DNA from: an uncultured Gemmatimonadaceae bacterium
GTDB taxonomy: Bacteria; Gemmatimonadota; Gemmatimonadetes; Gemmatimonadales; Gemmatimonadaceae
Reading direction: 5' to 3'
DNA: 64,000 nt
NCBI GenBank assembly: GCA_963751275.1
Contig: CAVVTZ010000007.1
Span: forward strand, 576,001-640,000
Part shown: positions 22,436-35,807 of the stretch, piece after piece
How the letters are laid out: each line of letters starts with the position of its first letter
Position numbering within the stretch: the stretch's first letter is position 1
The notes under the pieces: model-generated
Seen by the model: the letters and a program-made list of their open reading frames with translations, nothing else
The model's database searches: none
Told to the model about the DNA's origin: nothing
Translations under genes and position numbers: made by a program

Positions 22436-24425
22436 ATGCCTCGCTTCCCCCGCGCTCACGCCGGCCGCCGACATCGTCGCGGTTCCGCGCTGGTCCTCGT
22501 GCTCCTCATGACGGTGACGCTCGCGGCGGTAGCCATGTCCGCGATCCTGCTCACCGGCAGCGGCAAGATGCTCACCAAGTACTATGACCGCGAGCGCGAG
22601 TTCCGCTACGCGGCCGAGGCGGCGCTCGCCATGGGGAAGGCGCGCATCACGAAGGACACCACGATCCACCTCCCCGACAGCGGTTTCGTGACGCTGGTGT
22701 CGGGCGGCACGATCACCGGCGCCGATGGCCAGACGATCCCGAACGTGCGGGTGAACTTGTACGCCGGCAAGACCGGTAACACCACCGGCCAGTTCGGACA
22801 GTTCGCCAGCCTCATCGCCGAGGCCTATGACGCCGGCGGCACGCACTACGTGCGCCGCCTCGAGCTCGAGGCCTCGAACTTCGCGCGCTACGCGATGTTC
22901 ACCAACGTGTTCCCGGGCGTCTGCTACAGCACCGGCGAGTTCATCAGAGGGCGTGCGCACAGCAATCAGGGGTGGAACAACTGCGGCTCGCCCACTTACT
23001 ACGACACGGTCTCGGCGGTGACGTCGGTCACCGTGAGCAGCGCGGTGTTCAAGAAGGGCTACATCAACGGCGCCAAGGTCGATCCCGATCCCGTCGGTCG
23101 CGCAGCTCGCGAATCTGCACACCAACGCGGTGGCCGGGAATCTGGACGTCGTGCCGCTCGGCACCTCGCTCGCGAATCTCCGGACCCGCATCGAATTCGT
23201 CGCGATCGACCTCGACAACGACGGCCTCATCACCGGCCCGGCGGAAGGCTTCTTCCGCGTCTACAACTCGAACCGCACCGACCGCCTGCGCGTGACGCCC
23301 ATCCAGTACAGCGGCGGCATCAACTCGCCGCCCGACAGCCTCTGCGGCGACTGGCACATCGACTCGACCAACGTCCCGCGCCGCCTCGTATTCTACCCCA
23401 CCGCCACGCACAACCAGGCGTGGATGTGGGCGCGCTTCGCCGGCAGTCCGCCGGCCGACACCTTCAACACCACGCTGGCCACGTTGAACAAGCGCGACGC
23501 GATCATGGCGAATCCGAACGGATTCCGCTGCTACAGCGCGGGCGACCCCCATCTCGTGGCGTTCGAGCGCAAGTTGAAACTCTCGCTCCCGTCACCGGTC
23601 GCCGCCGACTACCAGAAGGGCGGCGAAGACACCACGTGGACCGACAGCACCAGCTACGGCTGGTGGGTCAAGTGGCCCGGCGCCACGGGCAACACGGTCA
23701 CGGCGCTCTCGAGCATGAGCGGCGGGAACAAGTATGTGAACTATCAGGCCCAGGCGACGCGTCTCTGGCCGCTGTATCGCGGCATCAACACGACGACGAA
23801 GGGCGTCGTCCACGTGCACGGCCCCGTGGCGCTTAGCGGCGTACTGCGCGGCAAGATCACGCTGTATGCCGCCACGACCGGCGGCGCCACCGGCACCGTG
23901 CTCTACATCGATGACCTCGTGTATGCGCAGGATCCGGCGGCGGTGCTCTGCGCCAATCTCCTCGGCGTGCTCTCGGACGGCGACCAGATGATCGCCGACA
24001 ATGCGATCAACTCGCCGCAGCAGGCGGGATCGGGAAAATCCTTCCGCTGGACCGATGGCACCGACAACGGGATGCTCACCGCCAACGACTTCGTCTTCCA
24101 CGGCGTGATGATGAGCCGCACGGGCACGATCGGCGTCGAGAACTATGGCTCGCACCCGGAGAACCTGAAGCACTGCAACGGCGCCCCCACGGGCCGCGGA
24201 TGCATCACGCAGGCCGGCGGCGTCATCCAGCAGACGATGTCCGCCACCTACGCGGGCGGCAACACGGGCTACGGCGAGAACCGCAGCGTGGACCAGTGCA
24301 TGCTGCAGATGTCGCCGCCGTACTTCCCCGTTACCGGGCAGTACATCGACAACCGCTTCTACGAGATCGATCCGGGCCGCTTCAACGTCTCGAACATGTT
24401 CTTCAATCTCCAGGGAGGTTTCTAG
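22436..24425 (+). CDS. Large PilX/GspK-like pilin, paralog 1 (frameshift near 23080)
   Basis: RRG|SALVLVLLMTVTL without E5; YAAEAALAMGKA; colinear with 24653-26626. Confidence 0.8.
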
Positions 24426-24652
24426 CGGCGCCGCTCGGATGCTTCGAGCGCACCACGACGCATTGGCGCAGCTCCCGGGCGCAGCGGGACTCGATCGCAG
24501 GACATTGATGGGCGGCCACCACGCACCAGTCGCGTGTCAGGCCGCTCGTCGTGCTTCCGGAAGGTCGCGATCGAGGAAGTGAAAACTTTCATTACACCGT
24601 GCGACGGATCGTTCCAGTGTGCCGCCGCCGAACTCGCACCACGGGTACTCCC

Positions 24653-26626
24653 ATGATCCGACGCAAGCAGCCGTCGAAGCCGCAGCCCGCCGAGAGCCGT
24701 CGCGGCAGCGCACTGATCCTCGTGCTCCTGATGACCGTCACCCTCGCGGCGCTCGCGCTCTCCTCGTTGGTGCTCATGAGCAGCGGTGTGCTGGTGGGCG
24801 ACTACCTCGATCACGAGAACGACTTCCGCTATGCGGCTGAGGCGGCGCTCGCGATGGGCAAGGCGCAGCTCACGAAGGACACCACGATCGCGATGCCGGA
24901 CAGCGGGTACATCACGCTGATCTCCGGCGGCCAGATCATGGGAGCCGACGGCCTTCCCGTCCCGCGCGTGCACGTCAACGTCTACATCGGACCCTCGGGC
25001 AATACCTCGGGCCAGTTCGGCCAGTTCGCGAGCGTGGTCGCCGAGGCGTACGACGCGTCGGGCACGCGCTATGTGCGGCGGCTCGAGCTGCAAGCCGAGA
25101 ACTTCGCGCGCTTCGCGATGTTCACGAACATCTGGCCCGGCGTCTGCTACGCGACCGGCGAATTCATCCGCGGGCGCGGGCACAGCAATCAGAATTGGCA
25201 GTCGTGCGGCAGTCCCAATTATTACGACACCATCTCCGCGCACGGCACCGTGGGCGGCGGCGCGCCGATCTACCACAAGGGGAAGATCGACGGCGCGCCG
25301 TACATCGCGATCCCGCCCGTCACGAAGCTCGCGATCATCCACACGCGGGCCGTGGACGGGAACCTGGACATCATCTCGAACGGCACGAACTCCAACAACG
25401 TGCGCACGCGCCTCGAGTTCGTGCCGGTGGACCTGGACGGCAACGGCGACATCTTCGGCCCGAACGAGGGATTCTTCCGCGTTTACCAGGGGAACAGCTC
25501 GAACGATGTGCGCGCCGATCCGAGCGGCGCGCACGGCCCCGACGACCAGTGCGGCGACTGGCACATCGACTCCGTGGCCGTGCCGGCGCGCCTCACCTTC
25601 TGGCCGGTGTCGGTGCACAACAACGCGTGGATGGCGGCGCGCTTCGCGGGCGGCCCGCCCGCGGACATGTACGTGGGTGGGATCACCCAGGCGCAGCGCG
25701 ACGCGATCATGGCGAACCCCAATTTCCGCTGCTATCCGCGCGGCGATCCGCATCTCGTGGCGGTGGAGCGCCCGGCGAAACTCTCGAGCCCCGCGCCGGT
25801 TCCGGCCGATTGGCAGAAGGGCGGCGAGGACACGACCTTCACCGACAGCACCACCTTCGGCTACTGGCAGCGCTGGGGCGGCGCCACCGGCAGCGTGACG
25901 GCCGCGCTCTCCGCGATCCCGTCCACGTCGCCGTACGCCGGCTACCTGGAGCAGGACCAGTGGCTCTGGCCGCTCTATAAGAGCATCAATCCCGGATCGC
26001 ACGGCGCCATCCACGTGCACGGCCCGATCGCGCTGAGCGGCGTGCTGCGCGGCAAGGTCACGATCTATGCCCAGACCTTCGGCGGCCAGCACGGCGATGT
26101 CGTCTATATCGACGATCTCGTGTACGCGCAGGACCCGTCCACGGTGCTGTGCGCGAACCTGCTCGGCGTGCTCTCCGACGGGAACCAAATGATCGCGGAC
26201 AACGCGATCAACTCGCCGCAGCGGGCGGGCGGCGGCTGGCCGTACCGCTGGACCGACGGCGACGACAACGGGATGTTCACCTCGCACGACTTCGTCTTCC
26301 ACGGCGTGATGATGAGCCGCACGGGGACGATCGGCGTCGAGAATTACGGCTCGCACGCGGAGCATCTGCAGAACTGCGGTGTGGCCAACTCCGGGCGCGG
26401 CTGCATCCGGCAAGCCGGCGGAGTGATCCAGAACCAGATCTCCGCGACGTTCACGAACAGCGGCGACGGCTACGGCGAGAACCGCAGCGTGGACCAATGC
26501 ATGAACCAGGAATCGCCGCCATACTTCCCCGTGACCGGGCGCTACCTCGACAACCGGTTCTACGAGATGGATCCGGCGCGGTTCAACATCACCACCCTCT
26601 TCCAATCGCTGCAGTCGGGGTTCTAA
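24653..26626 (+). CDS. Large PilX/GspK-like pilin, paralog 2
   Basis: RRG|SALILVLLMTVTL; many identical blocks with paralog 1 (DDLVYAQDP, CANLLGVLSDG, SPPYFPVTG). Confidence 0.82.
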   Translation: MIRRKQPSKPQPAESRRGSALILVLLMTVTLAALALSSLVLMSSGVLVGDYLDHENDFRYAAEAALAMGKAQLTKDTTIAMPDSGYITLISGGQIMGADGLPVPRVHVNVYIGPSGNTSGQFGQFASVVAEAYDASGTRYVRRLELQAENFARFAMFTNIWPGVCYATGEFIRGRGHSNQNWQSCGSPNYYDTISAHGTVGGGAPIYHKGKIDGAPYIAIPPVTKLAIIHTRAVDGNLDIISNGTNSNNVRTRLEFVPVDLDGNGDIFGPNEGFFRVYQGNSSNDVRADPSGAHGPDDQCGDWHIDSVAVPARLTFWPVSVHNNAWMAARFAGGPPADMYVGGITQAQRDAIMANPNFRCYPRGDPHLVAVERPAKLSSPAPVPADWQKGGEDTTFTDSTTFGYWQRWGGATGSVTAALSAIPSTSPYAGYLEQDQWLWPLYKSINPGSHGAIHVHGPIALSGVLRGKVTIYAQTFGGQHGDVVYIDDLVYAQDPSTVLCANLLGVLSDGNQMIADNAINSPQRAGGGWPYRWTDGDDNGMFTSHDFVFHGVMMSRTGTIGVENYGSHAEHLQNCGVANSGRGCIRQAGGVIQNQISATFTNSGDGYGENRSVDQCMNQESPPYFPVTGRYLDNRFYEMDPARFNITTLFQSLQSGF

Positions 26627-28416: not shown

Positions 28417-28420
<4 letters not shown>
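27935..28420 (+). CDS. MogA/MoaB-family molybdopterin adenylyltransferase
   Basis: ILTVSD, TTGGTGLSPRDVTPEAT, NLPGSP. Confidence 0.92.
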
Positions 28421-29946
<1,526 letters not shown>

Positions 29947-30083: not shown

Positions 30084-30818
30084 ATGGCTCTGAACGTGCC
30101 CGGCCACTCGTCGCACTCACCGATCGCGGGCAGTGTACTGCCGATCAAGCGCGCCGAGGATCTGTTGCTGACGCTGCCGGGGGTGCTGTCGGCGCGGATC
30201 GTGGCGGCGGACGACGGGGCGGTGAGCGAGATCCATTTGCTCACGAGCGCCGAAGTGAATCCGAAGCAGACCGTGCGGAACGTGGAGAGTGCGCTGATCG
30301 CGCATTTGGGGATGAAGGTCGATCACCGGAAGATCTCGGTGGCGACCAGCGTGGATACGCAGCAGACGGCGGACGCGCGGAAGGAGAGCGTGGCGTCGGC
30401 CGCGGCGGTGGTGGCGGCGGCGACGCTGCCCAGCCGGATGCTCTATTTCGAGGACGTGGAGGTGCGGCGTTCACGGGTGCAGGGGGTCACCTGCCGTGTG
30501 ACGCTGAGGAAGGGCGAGAAGTCCTACATTGGAGAAGCCGAGGGGGCTGAGACCGAGCGGTCGCGCGCCGAGCTGGCTGCGCGAGCGGCACTTTTGGCTA
30601 TCGTGCAGGCGGAGCCGGACGCGCATTTCGTGGCGGTGGAAGGCTGCAAGATGTTCGAGGCGTTCGACGCCGAGCATGTGTTCGTGGGGATCGCGGCGCG
30701 CGACGGACGGGACCGGGTGCTGCTGACGGGGAGCTGCCAGGTGAAGGACAGTCCGGAGACCGCGAGTGTGTTGGCGGTGCTGGACGCGACGAACCGGTGG
30801 TTGGGCCGCGCGAAGTAG
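30084..30818 (+). CDS. Conserved hypothetical two-domain protein
   Basis: Clean 244-aa ORF; motif LPGVLSARIV..EIHLL..PKQTVRNVESAL..DHRKISVA; C-terminal AVLDATNRW. Confidence 0.8.
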   Translation: MALNVPGHSSHSPIAGSVLPIKRAEDLLLTLPGVLSARIVAADDGAVSEIHLLTSAEVNPKQTVRNVESALIAHLGMKVDHRKISVATSVDTQQTADARKESVASAAAVVAAATLPSRMLYFEDVEVRRSRVQGVTCRVTLRKGEKSYIGEAEGAETERSRAELAARAALLAIVQAEPDAHFVAVEGCKMFEAFDAEHVFVGIAARDGRDRVLLTGSCQVKDSPETASVLAVLDATNRWLGRAK

Positions 30819-31116
30819 GGTAGGCCGCAGCGGCTGGAGTGATAGCAGGGGACGTGAACGCGTGGGGGCGTTTCGGCGCCGTCGCGCGATTGGTGTCCGC
30901 GGAAGAGCGGTAGGGATTGGAACTCAAACTTTGGTATAGATCACCAGCACCCTCACGAACGAAAAACTGAAACGAACCCCCGTTCTCGGCTAAGCAAGTT
31001 GGACAAGTAGTTAGCGAAGCTGAGCGGGCCAGACCAAGCAATTGAGCGGAGCCAACCTTATTGCATGTCACGACGAGCGTCGGGCATGACAAGACCTAAA
31101 GGGGGGTGACGCGACA

Positions 31117-31203
31117 ATGATGCATTTGCTGAAGGCTTGGGCGAAGCTCGCCAAGTTCATGAAGAACATTCCGGTTGATTTCGCCACGTTGAATTGGGGC
31201 TGA
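31117..31203 (+). CDS. 28-aa peptide MMHLLKAWAKLAKFMKNIPVDFATLNWG (candidate signal-peptide precursor)
   Basis: SD-like AAAGGGGGGTGA (31098-31109) 7 nt before the ATG; stop 27 nt upstream of the HD-GYP gene; amphipathic N-terminus. Confidence 0.65.
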   Translation: MMHLLKAWAKLAKFMKNIPVDFATLNWG

Positions 31204-31230
31204 AACCGGAGCGGGGGTTCCTCCTTAACT

Positions 31231-32586
31231 ATGCCGAAAAAGGTTCGGATCTACGTAGCCCTTACATTTCTTGCGGCCCTCGCGACGGGAGCCGTACTTC
31301 TTGGCATCGGATCACCGATCGAGGTTAAGGATCTCCAAGCAATCGTGGTTCTCGCGATTCTTGGTGTTAGCGCGGAGGCTTTGGCGCATAGCGCCCCCAG
31401 CGGCGCCACCGAATCAATCGCGTATATCCCCTACGTTACAATGGCGGTGCTGGTACCAAGCTGGCCTTCGGCGCTCGCAATTGGAGCCGCTTCTGGATTC
31501 GGCTCGTTGTTGCGTGGTTCTGGTGGGCTAAAGCCGATCTTTAATTTCTCGCAGGCCAGCCTTTCTGCAGGCCTCGCAGCAATCGCATTTCTACTGACGG
31601 GTGGGCACTCCCTTCTGGGGACTTCGTCGGCTGGGATCGGCTTCTCTTGGCTAATGTTGCTCGCTGTATTCGCGGCGTCGATGGCGTACGTGTTGGTAAA
31701 TACCGCTGTCGTTTCAGGGGTGATTGCTGTAAGTGAGGACCGAAACTTCGTCATGGTGTGGCGTACGACCGCGCTGCGTAGCGTGTTGTACGACGTTGTG
31801 GCCAGCCCAGTGGTCTACCTGCTCTCTTGGCTCTATGCAAGCTTTGGGATTCTTGGCGCAATAGCATTCGCGGCGCCCCTGTTGGTCCTTCGCGAGATTT
31901 ATAAGACGAATCGCCAGCTCGAGCGCGTCAACCATGAGCTCCTCGAACTCATGGTCAAAGCAATTGAAGCGCGCGACCCGTATACCTCAGGTCATTCGAG
32001 GCGCGTGTCGCAATACTCGAGAATCATCGCGCGCGCCATTGGCATCGGAGGTGCGGAGCTAGAACGAATCTCGGTAGTCGCTCTTCTTCACGACGTCGGC
32101 AAGATTCACGAAATCTACGCGCCCATTCTGCGGAAGCCGGAGAAACTCAGTCCAGCAGAATGGTCGGTAATGCAGACGCATCCTATCAAGAGTTCGGAGT
32201 TGGTCGCGACGGTTTCGCATTTGAAAGACATCGTTGCGCCGGTGCGGCATCATCATGAGAACTGGGATGGCACTGGATACCCTGACGGATTGCAAGGCGA
32301 GCAGATTCCGCTCGGAGCGCGCATCGTCTTGTTTGCTGATACCATAGATGCGATGACGACTGATCGCCCGTATCGAAAGGCGCTATCTGAGGCGCAGGTC
32401 CGGTCTGAGCTCGTGAAATTCCGCGGGAAGCAGTTCGATCCTGAGATGTGCGACAAGCTTCTCGCAAGTCCAATGTTTGGCCTCCTGTTCGCTCCGCATG
32501 CGCGTGAGTCGACCCCCGAGCAGGGCATGCCAGTCACCGCCGGCGGAAATCGGGGAGGTTCGCCCCCCTTGAGGTCGGCGCGATAG
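31231..32586 (+). CDS. Membrane-anchored HD-GYP cyclic-dinucleotide phosphodiesterase (MASE-type multi-TM sensor)
   Basis: About 7 hydrophobic helices in the first ~220 aa; TSGHSRRV, LLHDVGK, HHHENWDGTGYP, DAMTTDRPYR intact. Confidence 0.92.
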   Translation: MPKKVRIYVALTFLAALATGAVLLGIGSPIEVKDLQAIVVLAILGVSAEALAHSAPSGATESIAYIPYVTMAVLVPSWPSALAIGAASGFGSLLRGSGGLKPIFNFSQASLSAGLAAIAFLLTGGHSLLGTSSAGIGFSWLMLLAVFAASMAYVLVNTAVVSGVIAVSEDRNFVMVWRTTALRSVLYDVVASPVVYLLSWLYASFGILGAIAFAAPLLVLREIYKTNRQLERVNHELLELMVKAIEARDPYTSGHSRRVSQYSRIIARAIGIGGAELERISVVALLHDVGKIHEIYAPILRKPEKLSPAEWSVMQTHPIKSSELVATVSHLKDIVAPVRHHHENWDGTGYPDGLQGEQIPLGARIVLFADTIDAMTTDRPYRKALSEAQVRSELVKFRGKQFDPEMCDKLLASPMFGLLFAPHARESTPEQGMPVTAGGNRGGSPPLRSAR

Positions 32587-32600
32587 CGGCATTCCGCTTG

Positions 32601-35600
32601 CTAGGCCAGGCTCTTCTCGTGGCGATGTGTACGCGCCCGCTTATCCGCATCAGCCAGAAGGCCCCGACCAAGCTCGACAGTTCCAACTAGCCTTCCTACT
32701 CGTAGACTCAGCTGCGAGAGTATTGGGCCGCGCTCAAACCGAAAGTTCGTTACGTACTCATTCCAGAGCGCAACGAATCTCGGAAGTTCTCCCCGCCTCT
32801 CAAATGCATATGAGAGTGCAAGAACGTAGAGATCGTGGTGCGCCATCTGCCGTGCCATGTGATGGATCCGGAGTAACTCATCAATCTCGGTGTTCGTCGG
32901 ACACCATTGTTCCACAAGAAGACGTGCCAGTGTCCACGAACCTGTTCGGTGCGCCATTCCGCGCGGCCATTTCGCTTCGACAGACTCGAAGAGGCGTCGG
33001 AGCAGACTGATAGCGCTCGCGCCATCGCCCTCGAGTAGCGACAGCCGAGCCTCGTAGTCCAAGTCTCTAATCCGGTCCATGTCTACGAGGGTCGTTGAGC
33101 GCTGTCTCCAGGCAAGAAGGGATTTCCGTGCAGCTGCCGTGTCCCCGAGTGCCAATTGGTATTTCGCCCGAGACAACTGGTAGCGGTGAATGCCGTCAGG
33201 CAACCAGAGTTTTGTCGCGAGCAGTTCTCCGTCGTCAATCAAGTTGAAGAGGTCCGCGATATGACCGCCTAGGTAGAGACCTTCGGCACATTGCCCTATG
33301 GCGCGAATCAAATATCCGGGGTTTTCAGAACTCTTGAGAACACGCCGCAGATCCTGCGCAGCTTTCCCGCAGGCGGCCGCCGAGCCGAAGGACCCCTGAA
33401 ATATGATTTCCAACTCCGCGACGGCCGAGTCCTCCACCCCCGCGAAGAGTGGAGTCGTTGCCTCGAATATCTCGATCCCCTCTGTGCGAGCGAACAAATT
33501 ACTGGCAAGCTTCATCGCTATCGTTGCGGCCATCACCCGGAATGTGGGAGATGCGTCGGGATCCAACGCACAGGCACGGCTCTTGTCGAACCCCGCCCGC
33601 GATGGCCCGGTCGAGAAGTGCTCGGCATCGACCGCATAGAGAAATTCGGGCGTACAAGGCGTGCTGGCATTTGCTCCGGCTGTCTGAGTTCTTTCAAGCA
33701 TCGCGTAGATTTCGAGCAGCCGAGCATAGTCGCGAGTGGTATAGAGCGCGCCGATCAGGCGGCGCAGAAATCTCTCACGTACCACTTCCTGCTCAGGTTC
33801 GAGCGTAAGCGCATACTCCAGAATACGTATGGCGTCGAGCGGAATGCCCATCTTGATTGCTCGTTCGGAGCAGCGCTCCAGGAGCATGAGAGCCGCGTCA
33901 CGCTCACCGGCGTTCTCTCGATGCTTCGCACAATCGAAGAGGAGAGATGGATTTGAGCTCGCGTCGACCTCCCGTTCCAGCGTCTCCGCAGCATGACGGT
34001 GAAGCACACGTAGTGATAGTTGTGATATCTCGCTCAGTGCGGACATTCCGAGTAGGTCATGCCGGCAGAGCAGGTGGTCAGCCTCGGTGAGAATGAGCGA
34101 GTGTCGAGAAAGCTCATCGAGACTATCAAGGAGCGAAATCCTTCGCTCGTCGAGGACCGACTCGACGCGACGAAGCGTGGAATTCGATCCAAGTACTGCC
34201 GCTGCCTGAAGTACCCGCCGGGACAGCGGAGTGATATCTAGAAACCTCTCCGCAATCAGCTTCGTCAGGCTCGGTGGGGCCTGGAAGCGACCATCGGCAG
34301 TCGACGCTCGGCGGCCAAGTTCAATCAAGAAATAGGGATTCCCCGCGCTCGTGCGGACACACCAGTCGATGAAGTCCTCCTCGTTGGAGCGCTTCGCGGG
34401 GCCCACGTGGCCGAAGAGTTTGCGGCAGAATGCGGCGCTCAATGGCTGGAGTGGCATGGGCATGACTGCCGCGTCTTTCGGGATCGGGGTCGAGCCCTCC
34501 TCGGCGTCGCGCCGCGTCATCAGGACCAACACACCGGTCGTCGCAAGCTTCTTGCTCAACGCGGCCATCACATCCCAGCTCCACTCGTCCATCCAGTGGA
34601 TGTCCTCGATCAAGAGGATCACGCAGCTCTCGGTCGCCACGGCCGCAACGAGATCCACGATCGACAGCCTGATCCGCGCGAACAGATACTCCGCGTCCTG
34701 GCTCTCGGCGCTTGGCGTGGTCTGCTTGCAGTCGTAACTCGTCAGACGCTGCAGGTACGGAATTGAGTCGGGGTCGATGCCCACGGCGCCGGGCATCCGC
34801 CGGAGGGGCGGAACCAAATCACTCCACGCGCCCAATGGCCGGTGATCATCGTGCCGGCCCATGCTCGTGCGTGCGATCTTCGTTCCTTTCAACTCCGCGG
34901 CGCGCGTGAACTCGGTCACTAATCGCGTCTTCCCGATCCCCGGCGGACCGCTGATCACGAACGCGCTCCCGCGTCCCTCGCGCGCGTCCTTGAGCGCTGC
35001 GTCGAGCTTCGCCATCTCCTCCTCACGCCCGATCTGCGGCGGCTCGACTTCGATCACCGGCGGCACCGGATACAACTCGATGATCCGCTTCCGCAGCGCG
35101 AGCATCGGTTCGCGGATCTGCTTGCTCGCGGGACCGATCTCCGATGAATACCGGTCGAGCACGGCGATCGCCCGCGCCTTGCTGCCATCCATCGCGATGG
35201 ATTCCGCGTAGGCGAGAGTCGCGAGCTCGTTGAGCGGGTCCAGCTCCAGGCAGCGCATCGCCAGCTTCTCGGTCGCCTGCCAATCGCCCGCGGCGCGACG
35301 CTCGGTGATCGCGGCGCCGAGCCGGCGCCGGAGCGCCGCGTTCACTTGCGCACGCTGCTCCTCCACCCACGTGGTGAACGGGTCCGACACGCGCGGCATG
35401 TAGCCGGGCAGGAAGCCGCCCGGGATCCGCGTCAGCAATTCCTCGGTGGCGATGCCCGAGTCCTCATCGAGGAGATCGTCGAAATCCGTCGCGACGATCC
35501 CGTCAGGCAGCGTGATCCGCGCGCCGCTCGCCTCGATCGGCATGCCGCACGTGCGCAGGCGATAGCACATCTGCCGCATCGCGTGCGTGCCGTTGGACTC

Positions 35601-35807
35601 GGGTAGTTCAGGCCAGAGGGTCTCGGTGAACTTGCTGCGCTCCACTTTGCGCCGCCCCTCGACGGCCACGAACAGCGCGCTCGCGAACAGCATGCGCGCG
35701 TTCGGCGCGAGGCGCGTGGCGCCGATCGAGATCAGGCACTGGCCAAGACTCTGCAGATGGATCATGACGTCCCCGCTGACTGCTGTGGAGCGCAACGCTG
35801 TGGTCAT
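32601..35807 (-). CDS. AfsR/SARP-like STAND regulator: wHTH + BTAD + NTPase + helical-repeat sensor
   Basis: HLQSLG..wHTH-like start; LELDPLNE (BTAD); IGREEEM, GPPGIGKT, LLIEDIHWMD, AGNPYFLIEL; TPR-like C-terminus. Confidence 0.85.
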   Translation of the reverse strand: MTTALRSTAVSGDVMIHLQSLGQCLISIGATRLAPNARMLFASALFVAVEGRRKVERSKFTETLWPELPESNGTHAMRQMCYRLRTCGMPIEASGARITLPDGIVATDFDDLLDEDSGIATEELLTRIPGGFLPGYMPRVSDPFTTWVEEQRAQVNAALRRRLGAAITERRAAGDWQATEKLAMRCLELDPLNELATLAYAESIAMDGSKARAIAVLDRYSSEIGPASKQIREPMLALRKRIIELYPVPPVIEVEPPQIGREEEMAKLDAALKDAREGRGSAFVISGPPGIGKTRLVTEFTRAAELKGTKIARTSMGRHDDHRPLGAWSDLVPPLRRMPGAVGIDPDSIPYLQRLTSYDCKQTTPSAESQDAEYLFARIRLSIVDLVAAVATESCVILLIEDIHWMDEWSWDVMAALSKKLATTGVLVLMTRRDAEEGSTPIPKDAAVMPMPLQPLSAAFCRKLFGHVGPAKRSNEEDFIDWCVRTSAGNPYFLIELGRRASTADGRFQAPPSLTKLIAERFLDITPLSRRVLQAAAVLGSNSTLRRVESVLDERRISLLDSLDELSRHSLILTEADHLLCRHDLLGMSALSEISQLSLRVLHRHAAETLEREVDASSNPSLLFDCAKHRENAGERDAALMLLERCSERAIKMGIPLDAIRILEYALTLEPEQEVVRERFLRRLIGALYTTRDYARLLEIYAMLERTQTAGANASTPCTPEFLYAVDAEHFSTGPSRAGFDKSRACALDPDASPTFRVMAATIAMKLASNLFARTEGIEIFEATTPLFAGVEDSAVAELEIIFQGSFGSAAACGKAAQDLRRVLKSSENPGYLIRAIGQCAEGLYLGGHIADLFNLIDDGELLATKLWLPDGIHRYQLSRAKYQLALGDTAAARKSLLAWRQRSTTLVDMDRIRDLDYEARLSLLEGDGASAISLLRRLFESVEAKWPRGMAHRTGSWTLARLLVEQWCPTNTEIDELLRIHHMARQMAHHDLYVLALSYAFERRGELPRFVALWNEYVTNFRFERGPILSQLSLRVGRLVGTVELGRGLLADADKRARTHRHEKSLA

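Follow-up and report, generated by a model that had tools for sequence, protein, structure and literature searches.

The agr (AgrBDCA) and comQXPA systems serve peptide quorum sensing in Bacillota. The small membrane proteins MgrB and SafA tune the sensor PhoQ, and we know of no allele cassette for either of them. Leader ORFs can act by translational coupling, as in the cat and erm leaders, the long-range helix of MS2 and mgtQ, while TRAP, CsrA and ANTAR proteins are regulators that bind repeats in RNA. Messages of type I toxins combine a small amphipathic peptide with a hidden Shine-Dalgarno (SD) sequence and long-range pairing of the message ends.

The MASE9-HD-GYP architecture is represented by Thermotoga maritima TM1467 and Streptomyces venezuelae HdgA (Galperin and Chou, bioRxiv 10.1101/2021.11.05.467447; PMC6205966). 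According to the main text of the former, the ligand of MASE9 is unknown and is proposed to bind inside the membrane (Galperin and Chou, bioRxiv 10.1101/2021.11.05.467447). Mutants in HdgA and HdgB had no developmental phenotype, and the main text presumes that the activating signals were missing (PMC6205966). The word 'peptide' is absent from the main texts of both papers, and their passages on MASE9-HD-GYP proteins mention no small ORF or RNA leader. Full-text literature, mostly without subscription papers, gave no description of the peptide and RNA reported here, of DUF5317 or of a link between MASE9 and subtilases.

Here we compare a locus in a 64,000-nucleotide stretch of DNA from an uncultured Gemmatimonadaceae bacterium, the whole of which is called the window below. 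The locus is an undescribed four-part module, consisting of a putative regulator outside any annotated family, a structured RNA, a Trp-tipped peptide and a MASE9-HD-GYP protein. MASE9 is an orphan sensor domain, and the locus offers candidate ligands for it (Trp tips of 6-8 residues) together with natural allele pairs. If the peptide travels between cells, this would be peptide signalling in a diderm phylum abundant in soil and water, with a signal that feeds c-di-GMP directly rather than a kinase.

The peptide gene and the sensor gene

An earlier note on this DNA had proposed a 28-codon ORF preceded by an extended SD-like match, and both were located where it had placed them. The ORF (31117..31203, plus strand) runs from ATG to TGA, has a second in-frame ATG at 31120, and follows the SD-like stretch AAAGGGGGGTGA at 31098-31109. 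Its 28-aa product, MMHLLKAWAKLAKFMKNIPVDFATLNWG, consists of a conserved helix (codons 1-16) and a variable tip ending in Trp (codons 17-28). Residues 3-18 are amphipathic, as the note had suggested for the N-terminus, with a hydrophobic moment of 0.59 that only 0.5% of 5000 shuffles attained (p about 0.005). The peptide has no full transmembrane or signal segment, the best 19-residue Kyte-Doolittle mean being 0.48.

The sensor gene (31231..32586, plus strand) starts 27 bases after the peptide stop and has no SD in the window. It encodes a 451-aa MASE9-HD-GYP protein (PF20972 at 27.3 bits against a cut-off of 24.3; HD_5, E 6e-32). HD, HHE and GYP motifs are visible in the translation, and because they are intact we infer c-di-GMP hydrolysis; the protein is thus a predicted membrane c-di-GMP phosphodiesterase. 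The MASE9 half is hypervariable, 76 of 83 homologues of the protein match MASE9 at E 0.05 or better, and only one MASE9 gene was found in the window's genome (G000). Compared with solved structures, the MASE9 profile gave one match, at E 0.09. Weak matches to ECF S-components in a few MASE9-like fragments did not recur in the 83 family members.

The peptide family among relatives

Relatives of the sensor gene were collected into a set of 110 loci. Of these, 30 came from 41 related genomes, and 80 were the best of 558 confirmed genome loci. The window itself and four duplicate pairs are among the 110, whose members are not independent. An SD-led ORF of 16-35 aa was found by script in 102 of these 110 loci, best 80 of 558 included, and by eye in two more (L037 and L115), consistent with a conserved SD. 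As four of the 110 loci have too little upstream DNA to be read, short hydrophobic and mostly Trp-ending homologues precede MASE9-HD-GYP in 104 of 106 readable loci, again including the best 80 of 558. At L015 and L039 the ORF starts but overruns its usual stop, and the MASE9 gene of both genomes is broken as well. Start codons (ATG 85, GTG 14, TTG 2) and stop codons (TGA 36, TAG 35, TAA 30) both vary.

The earlier note had named stops or frameshifts together with loss of the SD as speaking against the ORF, and related loci did not show this picture. Coding constraint, which it had proposed to examine, was apparent from all 25 disjoint pairs of same-length ORFs (nucleotide identity 62% or more), where pN was lower than pS (pooled 0.18 vs 0.39, uncorrected). 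Sequence comparison confirms that the 28-codon ORF is a real, conserved small gene.

The 110-locus set yields 95 distinct peptides of 16-35 residues (median 23). In 77 of the 95 the second-last residue is Trp; 85 have Trp among their last three residues and 10 do not. Trp is the only near-invariant residue in the peptide alignment (A5). The suggestion that the variable aromatic C-terminus is the probable business end is supported. Amphipathicity reached p below 0.1 for 60 of 102 family members, and the last four residues average 0.16 K/R, i.e., there is almost no basic tail. The peptide matched no NCBIfam or Pfam family. A phylum-wide MASE9 search added 30 further loci, and most of the 22 inspected show the same ORF; these were not counted. 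The unpublished genome G012 (locus L016) contributes a single row to alignments A1 and A2 and a single unit to several counts, including that of amphipathicity in 102 peptides; no claim depends on it, and its sequence is not quoted here. One copy, L025 (G017:C5), has no upstream 244-aa gene in the DNA read, a weak P0 helix and an altered SD context.

The RNA leader

The DNA upstream of the peptide ORF is more conserved than the ORF, and the leader stretch of the window folds at z -2.6. On the plus strand, the leader opens with the 5' arm (30974..30989) of P0, a long-range helix around the leader and the peptide ORF. It is followed by the first two AGCG(G/A)-type repeats, 10 bases apart (31012..31029; conserved columns of alignment A1), a third repeat that together with the P1 5' strand reads GCG-GA-GCC-AA-CC (31044..31057; 98.3% of cells paired in the RNAalifold consensus), and P2, a variable hairpin with a conserved base (31063..31090; three base pairs 99.5% paired). 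The SD GGGGGGTGA plus CGC forms the P1 3' strand (31101..31112), in invariant or near-invariant columns that are paired. In the fold, the P0 5' arm pairs with 31206-31220; this 3' arm (31206..31220, plus strand) lies directly after the peptide stop and 10 bases before the sensor start codon.

P1 pairs the SD region by way of tandem G-A mismatches and shows few changes across rows; in the predicted fold it hides the ribosome site of the peptide ORF. P2 has 23 and 24 double-sided changes at two of its three base pairs, and in P0 such changes affect 6 of 10 pairs, 67 rows giving 81.5% paired cells. Taken together, the 21 named leader pairs are 90.5% paired over 67 rows and carry 113 double-sided changes vs 44 in shuffled and 26-44 in slid controls, a count favoured by design, as the leader structure was drawn from the same sequences. 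The P0 arms pair on average at -26.6 kcal/mol within their own locus, vs -20.5 across loci and -16.7 for in-gene controls (81 loci). The leader pattern is single-copy in G000; a looser pattern gave many chance matches over 41 genomes and was left out of the counting. No Rfam family exceeded its gathering score in the window (best match SAM-VI, 19.6 bits vs 57.5), and 20 homologous loci gave no match. The leader is a conserved RNA absent from Rfam.

Of 77 loci, 53 have a P0 3' arm that begins no more than 5 bases from the peptide stop, and in 69 the arm ends no more than 30 bases from the sensor start, a position that suits translational coupling in most Gemmatimonadota loci. At L033, L099 and L102, on the other hand, 140-199 bases separate the end of the arm from the estimated sensor start; several metagenome loci have the sensor's own SD outside P0 (sensor starts being estimates). 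Because these loci break the reach to the sensor, P0 tracks the peptide stop and not the sensor start. Elsewhere the arm starts 29-47 bases after the peptide stop or leaves the sensor SD free. P0 does not fit a giant-loop terminator, since five or more T occur in the next 8 bases in only 17 of 77 loci. Processing by RNase III is unlikely here, as only one of 41 genomes from the order gave a PF14622 match. As an observation in its own right, this contrasts with 8 of 14 control genomes, and the order may largely lack RNase III.

The upstream gene is followed by at least two AGCG(G/A)A motifs in 56 of 67 metagenome loci (mean 2.27, vs a background mean of 0.27 and 18 of 493 background windows), and none of 19 MASE9 loci of another type, from Acidobacteriota, has two such leader repeats. 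We considered whether the elements act as DNA, in the form of a mini-hairpin or of direct repeats for a transcription factor, but the spacing between the second and third repeat varies, and G-U pairs together with the covariation favour RNA. A TRAP- or CsrA-type reading of the repeats was set aside, as neither family was found in G000 (83% complete).

Many contigs (L042, L043, L048, L054, L056, L058, L062, L064, L072, L090 and others) have an end within the leader, about 190-220 bases before the sensor gene, and assembly apparently tends to break at the junction between conserved leader and variable cassette. Several of these short contigs belong to genomes that carry the label of another phylum, possibly through mis-binning.

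The upstream protein and other neighbours

A 244-aa protein, the candidate regulator of the RNA leader, is encoded at 30084..30818 (plus strand). It has no Pfam and no meaningful NCBIfam match, and its gene is a family without annotation. The model (pLDDT 90) predicts a small N-terminal alpha/beta domain and a regulatory-type domain as in LeuA and citramalate synthase. The best fold match was 3f6h (Z 10.5, rmsd 3.3, 114 of 119 residues aligned); Foldseek gave E 1e-4 to 3f6g, and matches to the dsRBD fold stayed above E 0.001. In 81 of 82 loci this gene precedes the sensor gene in the same orientation. It was not found in 10 genomes of other families. In family f7 of the phylum, none of 13 genomes gave MASE9 and none of 9 gave the upstream gene, so that both are missing together in those searched. 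Co-occurrence with the AGCG(G/A)A repeats suggests that the protein probably binds them. At eight loci (L031, L032, L036, L111, L130, L134, L135 and L140) about 900 bases lie between the upstream gene and the peptide; at L130 this insert holds an ORF labelled receiver-like from inspection.

A sigma-54 activator (28417..29946, plus strand; Pfam) is a conserved upstream neighbour of the module, present in 44 of the 50 loci where at least 2.5 kb could be read. Convergent to the sensor gene, an AAA_16 protein (32601..35807, minus strand; Pfam) has a variable, TPR-like C-terminal half, and its gene is present in 11 and was not seen in 6 of 17 regions read. Residues 601-1050 are 25-49% identical in three same-genus genomes vs 67-92% for the N-terminal part, and Atlas feature matches of the C-terminal part to TPR clusters at 0.94 are a lead only. 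Divergence of this region does not track MASE9: G005 has the most divergent MASE9 and the least divergent TPR-like region. G+C is 0.56-0.61 at 30800-34400 of the window (leader, sensor and 3' half of the AAA gene) vs 0.62-0.74 in the flanks, a stretch that covers both variable blocks. Further upstream (23130-26626), two neighbouring long ORFs have near-identical C-terminal halves, and the N-terminal segment of the second presumably resembles type IV pilus assembly PilX proteins.

Joint divergence of tip and MASE9

Comparison with two same-genus genomes, G005 and G004, located the variable parts of the cassette. Nucleotide identities were 0.96/0.96 for the leader, 0.96/0.98 for codons 1-16, 0.50/0.64 for codons 17-28, 0.53/0.59 for MASE9 and 0.76/0.79 for HD-GYP. 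With G005, the blastn match ends at 31173, inside the peptide ORF, and resumes at 31900, at the HD-GYP domain. Protein identity to G005 is 97% for the upstream protein, 28% for MASE9, 84% for HD-GYP and 92-97% for flanking proteins. The tips in these three genomes are DFATLNWG (the window), AFETQSWG and SFDTQQWQ. The upstream protein is 96-100% identical between genomes with differing tips.

Across 64 loci, median identity was 0.30 for MASE9, 0.62 for HD-GYP and 0.54 for the upstream protein. In 27 close-host pairs, which are not independent, tip similarity tracked MASE9 identity with rho 0.76 and HD-GYP with rho 0.58. Over all pairs of the 64 loci, the partial correlation of the tip was weak, at 0.11 with MASE9 and 0.15 with HD-GYP, and that of the helix part was 0.26. 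Linkage alone could produce the joint divergence of tip and MASE9, because adjacent DNA recombines together.

Complex prediction was carried out on a homologous locus, L061, with its 35-aa peptide and its own MASE9. The score was 0.49 vs 0.00 for the best control, which falls in the weak class and was set against controls that did not compare cognate with non-cognate peptides. The pLDDT of the partner was at least 65, and runs agreed in at least 81% of contacts. Among solved pairs 116 of 157 attained the mark for a complex, as did 2 of 215 mismatched pairs; 18 of the 157 and both mismatches did so at 0.60 or under.

Trp-repeat tails beside MASE9 in Acidobacteriota

MASE9 was found in 10 of 61 sampled genomes of Acidobacteriota, giving 19 loci after one Gemmatimonad-like contig was left out. 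Ten of the 19 follow ORFs with tandem Trp-repeat ends, in one case with a GNAT gene between, and nine of these ten ORFs are S8 subtilases; the other nine loci have no adjacent repeat tail. The subtilase repeats (NNIVWG, DAMLWS, DQVIWT, DGVIWT) follow the pattern xxΦW[G/S/T], and members of the peptide family have similar ends, such as DGVIWG and DTVIWG. A search from the side of the tails, over 201 genomes, placed a MASE9-like gene within about 6 kb of 16 of the 30 best tail loci, two to three of these positives having helped to train the search profile. The DNA read at the other 14 of 30 contained no MASE9; four of them were read only 1.5 kb each way and one lies at a contig end. The Trp-repeat tails may be structural.

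Several related arrangements were seen. At L176 and L181, free small ORFs upstream of MASE9 encode the motif of the subtilase tails; one contains NIVHW(T/I)D three times and one ends in DGVIWEGDIY. L312 (G213:C190:272000-291999), L302, L303 and L306 carry ORFs with Trp-repeat tails in tandem, up to eight in a row, and 20 kb at L312 contained no MASE9-like gene. GNAT genes often follow Trp-repeat tails.

The arrangement beyond the phylum

Relatives of the 244-aa gene are present in two Bacillota, Natranaerobius thermophilus and Subdoligranulum variabile, in plasmid-labelled records. Both have the order 244-aa relative, AGCG(G/A)A repeats, peptide, membrane HD-GYP gene and DUF5317, with complementary arms around the peptide. 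The peptides end AGGASFTWGGGG and ASGAFFCVR; Pfam calls MASE9 in N. thermophilus and not in S. variabile. In the Natranaerobius plasmid record (L170, 6986-8784), the annotation splits both the MASE9-HD-GYP and the DUF5317 gene in two, as it does other genes there, probably through sequence errors. DUF5317 was found in 0 of 41 genomes of the window's order and, because of this absence, does not appear to be needed there. Nothing new came from searching plasmids with MASE9 and DUF5317 or from a viral scan.

A metagenome set supplied 80 loci of the upstream gene with unassigned taxonomy (G+C 0.27-0.71), of which at least five look like Gemmatimonadota. The finder script recovered a peptide in 42 of 67 loci with 300 bases or more downstream, and an HD-GYP match was present in 42 of 46 loci with 1.5 kb or more. 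Arms of the P0 type paired at -28.6 within loci vs -17.9 across loci (41 loci). Many of these peptide homologues have GG-A before a short aromatic tip.

Proposed mechanism and alternatives

The gene, the RNA helices, the gene order and the joint divergence of tip and MASE9 come from comparing sequences across loci, and the following mechanism is proposed to connect them. P1 would keep the ribosome site of the peptide closed until it is opened, probably by the 244-aa protein acting on the AGCG(G/A)A repeats, with the LeuA-type domain sensing a small ligand. The amphipathic helix would take the peptide to the inner membrane, where the tip, whole or cut by a housekeeping protease, would bind a pocket in MASE9. 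Binding would change c-di-GMP, and either activation or inhibition is possible. P0 would keep the message of the peptide closed on itself, and in this lineage it may also couple translation of the sensor to that of the peptide. The peptide thus likely docks its Trp-bearing tip into the adjacent MASE9 and sets the predicted phosphodiesterase in an allele-specific manner, a reading to which we assign a probability of roughly 0.6, split about evenly between a membrane partner in the same cell and a released signal. That the peptide is the likely partner of MASE9 is suggested by the fixed adjacency of the two genes, by the joint divergence of tip and MASE9, by the subtilase tails of Acidobacteriota and by the weak support for the L061 complex. 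It also fits the proposal that the MASE9 ligand binds within the membrane, as given in the main text (bioRxiv 10.1101/2021.11.05.467447).

A simpler explanation is that the ORF serves only as a gate, ribosomes on it opening P0 and exposing the MASE9-HD-GYP start, with a product that has no target. The P0 3' arm near the peptide stop (53 of 77) and near the sensor start (69 of 77), a sensor gene that lacks an SD in the window, and an ORF whose own SD is hidden by P1 are all in favour of this. However, simple unmasking does not need constraint on the amino acids or a conserved helix and Trp. It also leaves aside that the tip changes together with MASE9, that similar Trp motifs neighbour MASE9 where leader repeats are lacking, and that the arm lies 140-199 bases from the sensor start at L033, L099 and L102 and leaves the sensor SD free at others. 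As a complete account we consider the gate unlikely; coupling of translation and a peptide-MASE9 interaction can coexist. The target might instead be cytoplasmic. It could be the LeuA-type domain of the upstream protein, which would feed back on its own leader, or else the AAA protein with its TPR-like half, in the manner of RRNPP systems. The presence of the upstream gene in 81 of 82 loci, the match of its fold to amino-acid-binding regulatory domains and the hypervariability of the TPR-like half within the genus would suit such targets. Yet the upstream protein hardly changes (96-100%) between genomes whose tips differ, divergence of the TPR region in G005 follows neither MASE9 nor tip, and 6 of 17 regions showed no AAA gene, which makes a cytoplasmic target rather improbable.

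Two further readings start from the peptide itself. Its small size and amphipathicity, the hidden SD and the long-range end pairing recall type I toxin messages, in which a membrane-damaging peptide would be silenced by pairing of the mRNA 5' and 3' ends and by an antisense RNA. This is very improbable, as the gene is single-copy in G000 and keeps a fixed position before one sensor family in several lineages, the last four residues (0.16 K/R) form almost no basic tail, and a consensus scan found no minus-strand promoter or terminator. The earlier note had compared the peptide with AgrD, the precursor of a cyclic (thio)lactone autoinducer. An amphipathic N-terminal leader helix is indeed shared, as is a variable C-terminal part next to a variable membrane sensor. 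However, a conserved Cys/Ser core is lacking (76 of 95 distinct peptides are Cys-free), and there is no charged C-terminal tail; no acidic tail follows the core because the chain ends at or just after Trp. IP, which the note had seen between helix and tail, occurs in 3 of 95 and is not conserved. AgrB (PF04647) exceeded its cut-off in 0 of 41 genomes, with one weak match, in a search whose control set also gave none over cut-off and whose sensitivity is thus unproven; no AgrB-like gene neighbours the ORF, as the note had also observed. With no NCBIfam or Pfam match for the peptide and a putative receptor that is not a histidine kinase, we regard an AgrD-like precursor as hardly credible. What stands of the earlier note is the small gene with its SD, helix and tail; the AgrD reading falls, and the MASE9-HD-GYP neighbour and the surrounding RNA structure had been missed.

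Other precursor types were compared as well. The neighbours are the 244-aa gene and MASE9-HD-GYP, not a ComQ prenyltransferase and a histidine kinase as in comQXP; Trp near the C-terminus is conserved. The leader of the window's peptide has no GG of the double-glycine type, and C39 (PF03412) was not found in G000 (83% complete). A dedicated processor or exporter was not found, with AgrB and DUF5317 each in 0 of 41 genomes and C39 absent from G000.

If docking of the Trp tip into MASE9 is correct, it can be extended to communication by peptides across phyla, an extension that we offer tentatively and do not expect to hold in full. Allele-specific Trp-tipped signals would then come from micro-genes in Gemmatimonadota and Bacillota and from subtilase repeat tails in Acidobacteriota. 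MASE9 would be a general receptor that passes Trp peptides on to c-di-GMP, and a new RNA switch, together with a new RNA-binding protein whose fold is of an amino-acid-sensing type, would gate output post-transcriptionally.

Comparison with known systems

TM1467 and HdgA resemble the locus in that the downstream gene of the window has the same MASE9-HD-GYP architecture. As for the repeats, TRAP, CsrA and ANTAR systems likewise have a number of short, purine-rich repeats ahead of a hidden SD, frequently within hairpin loops, whereas AGCG(G/A)A tolerates GAA for GGA and matches no Rfam family. The likeness to the cat and erm leaders, MS2 and mgtQ is that translation of the upstream ORF could open a helix near the next start codon. 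Here, in contrast, the entire ORF lies within the helix, whose 5' arm is about 140 bases upstream, and in several loci a helix of this type misses the start region of the next gene. A tiny hydrophobic protein acting on a membrane sensor of the same cell, as MgrB and SafA do, fits all data; these proteins differ in not being encoded in the structured leader of their own sensor.

With agr and comQXPA the module shares a small precursor with a membrane-targeting leader beside a membrane sensor, and a peptide tip and sensor domain that form a variable cassette between conserved flanks. It differs in that the sensor is MASE9 on an HD-GYP enzyme and not a kinase, that no AgrB- or ComQ-type gene is a neighbour, that it occurs in a diderm phylum, that control appears at the RNA level, and that no homologous part was found. 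Because no tested part belongs to the agr or com families, we set the module apart as new, although the logic of its inferred mechanism resembles that of their cassettes.
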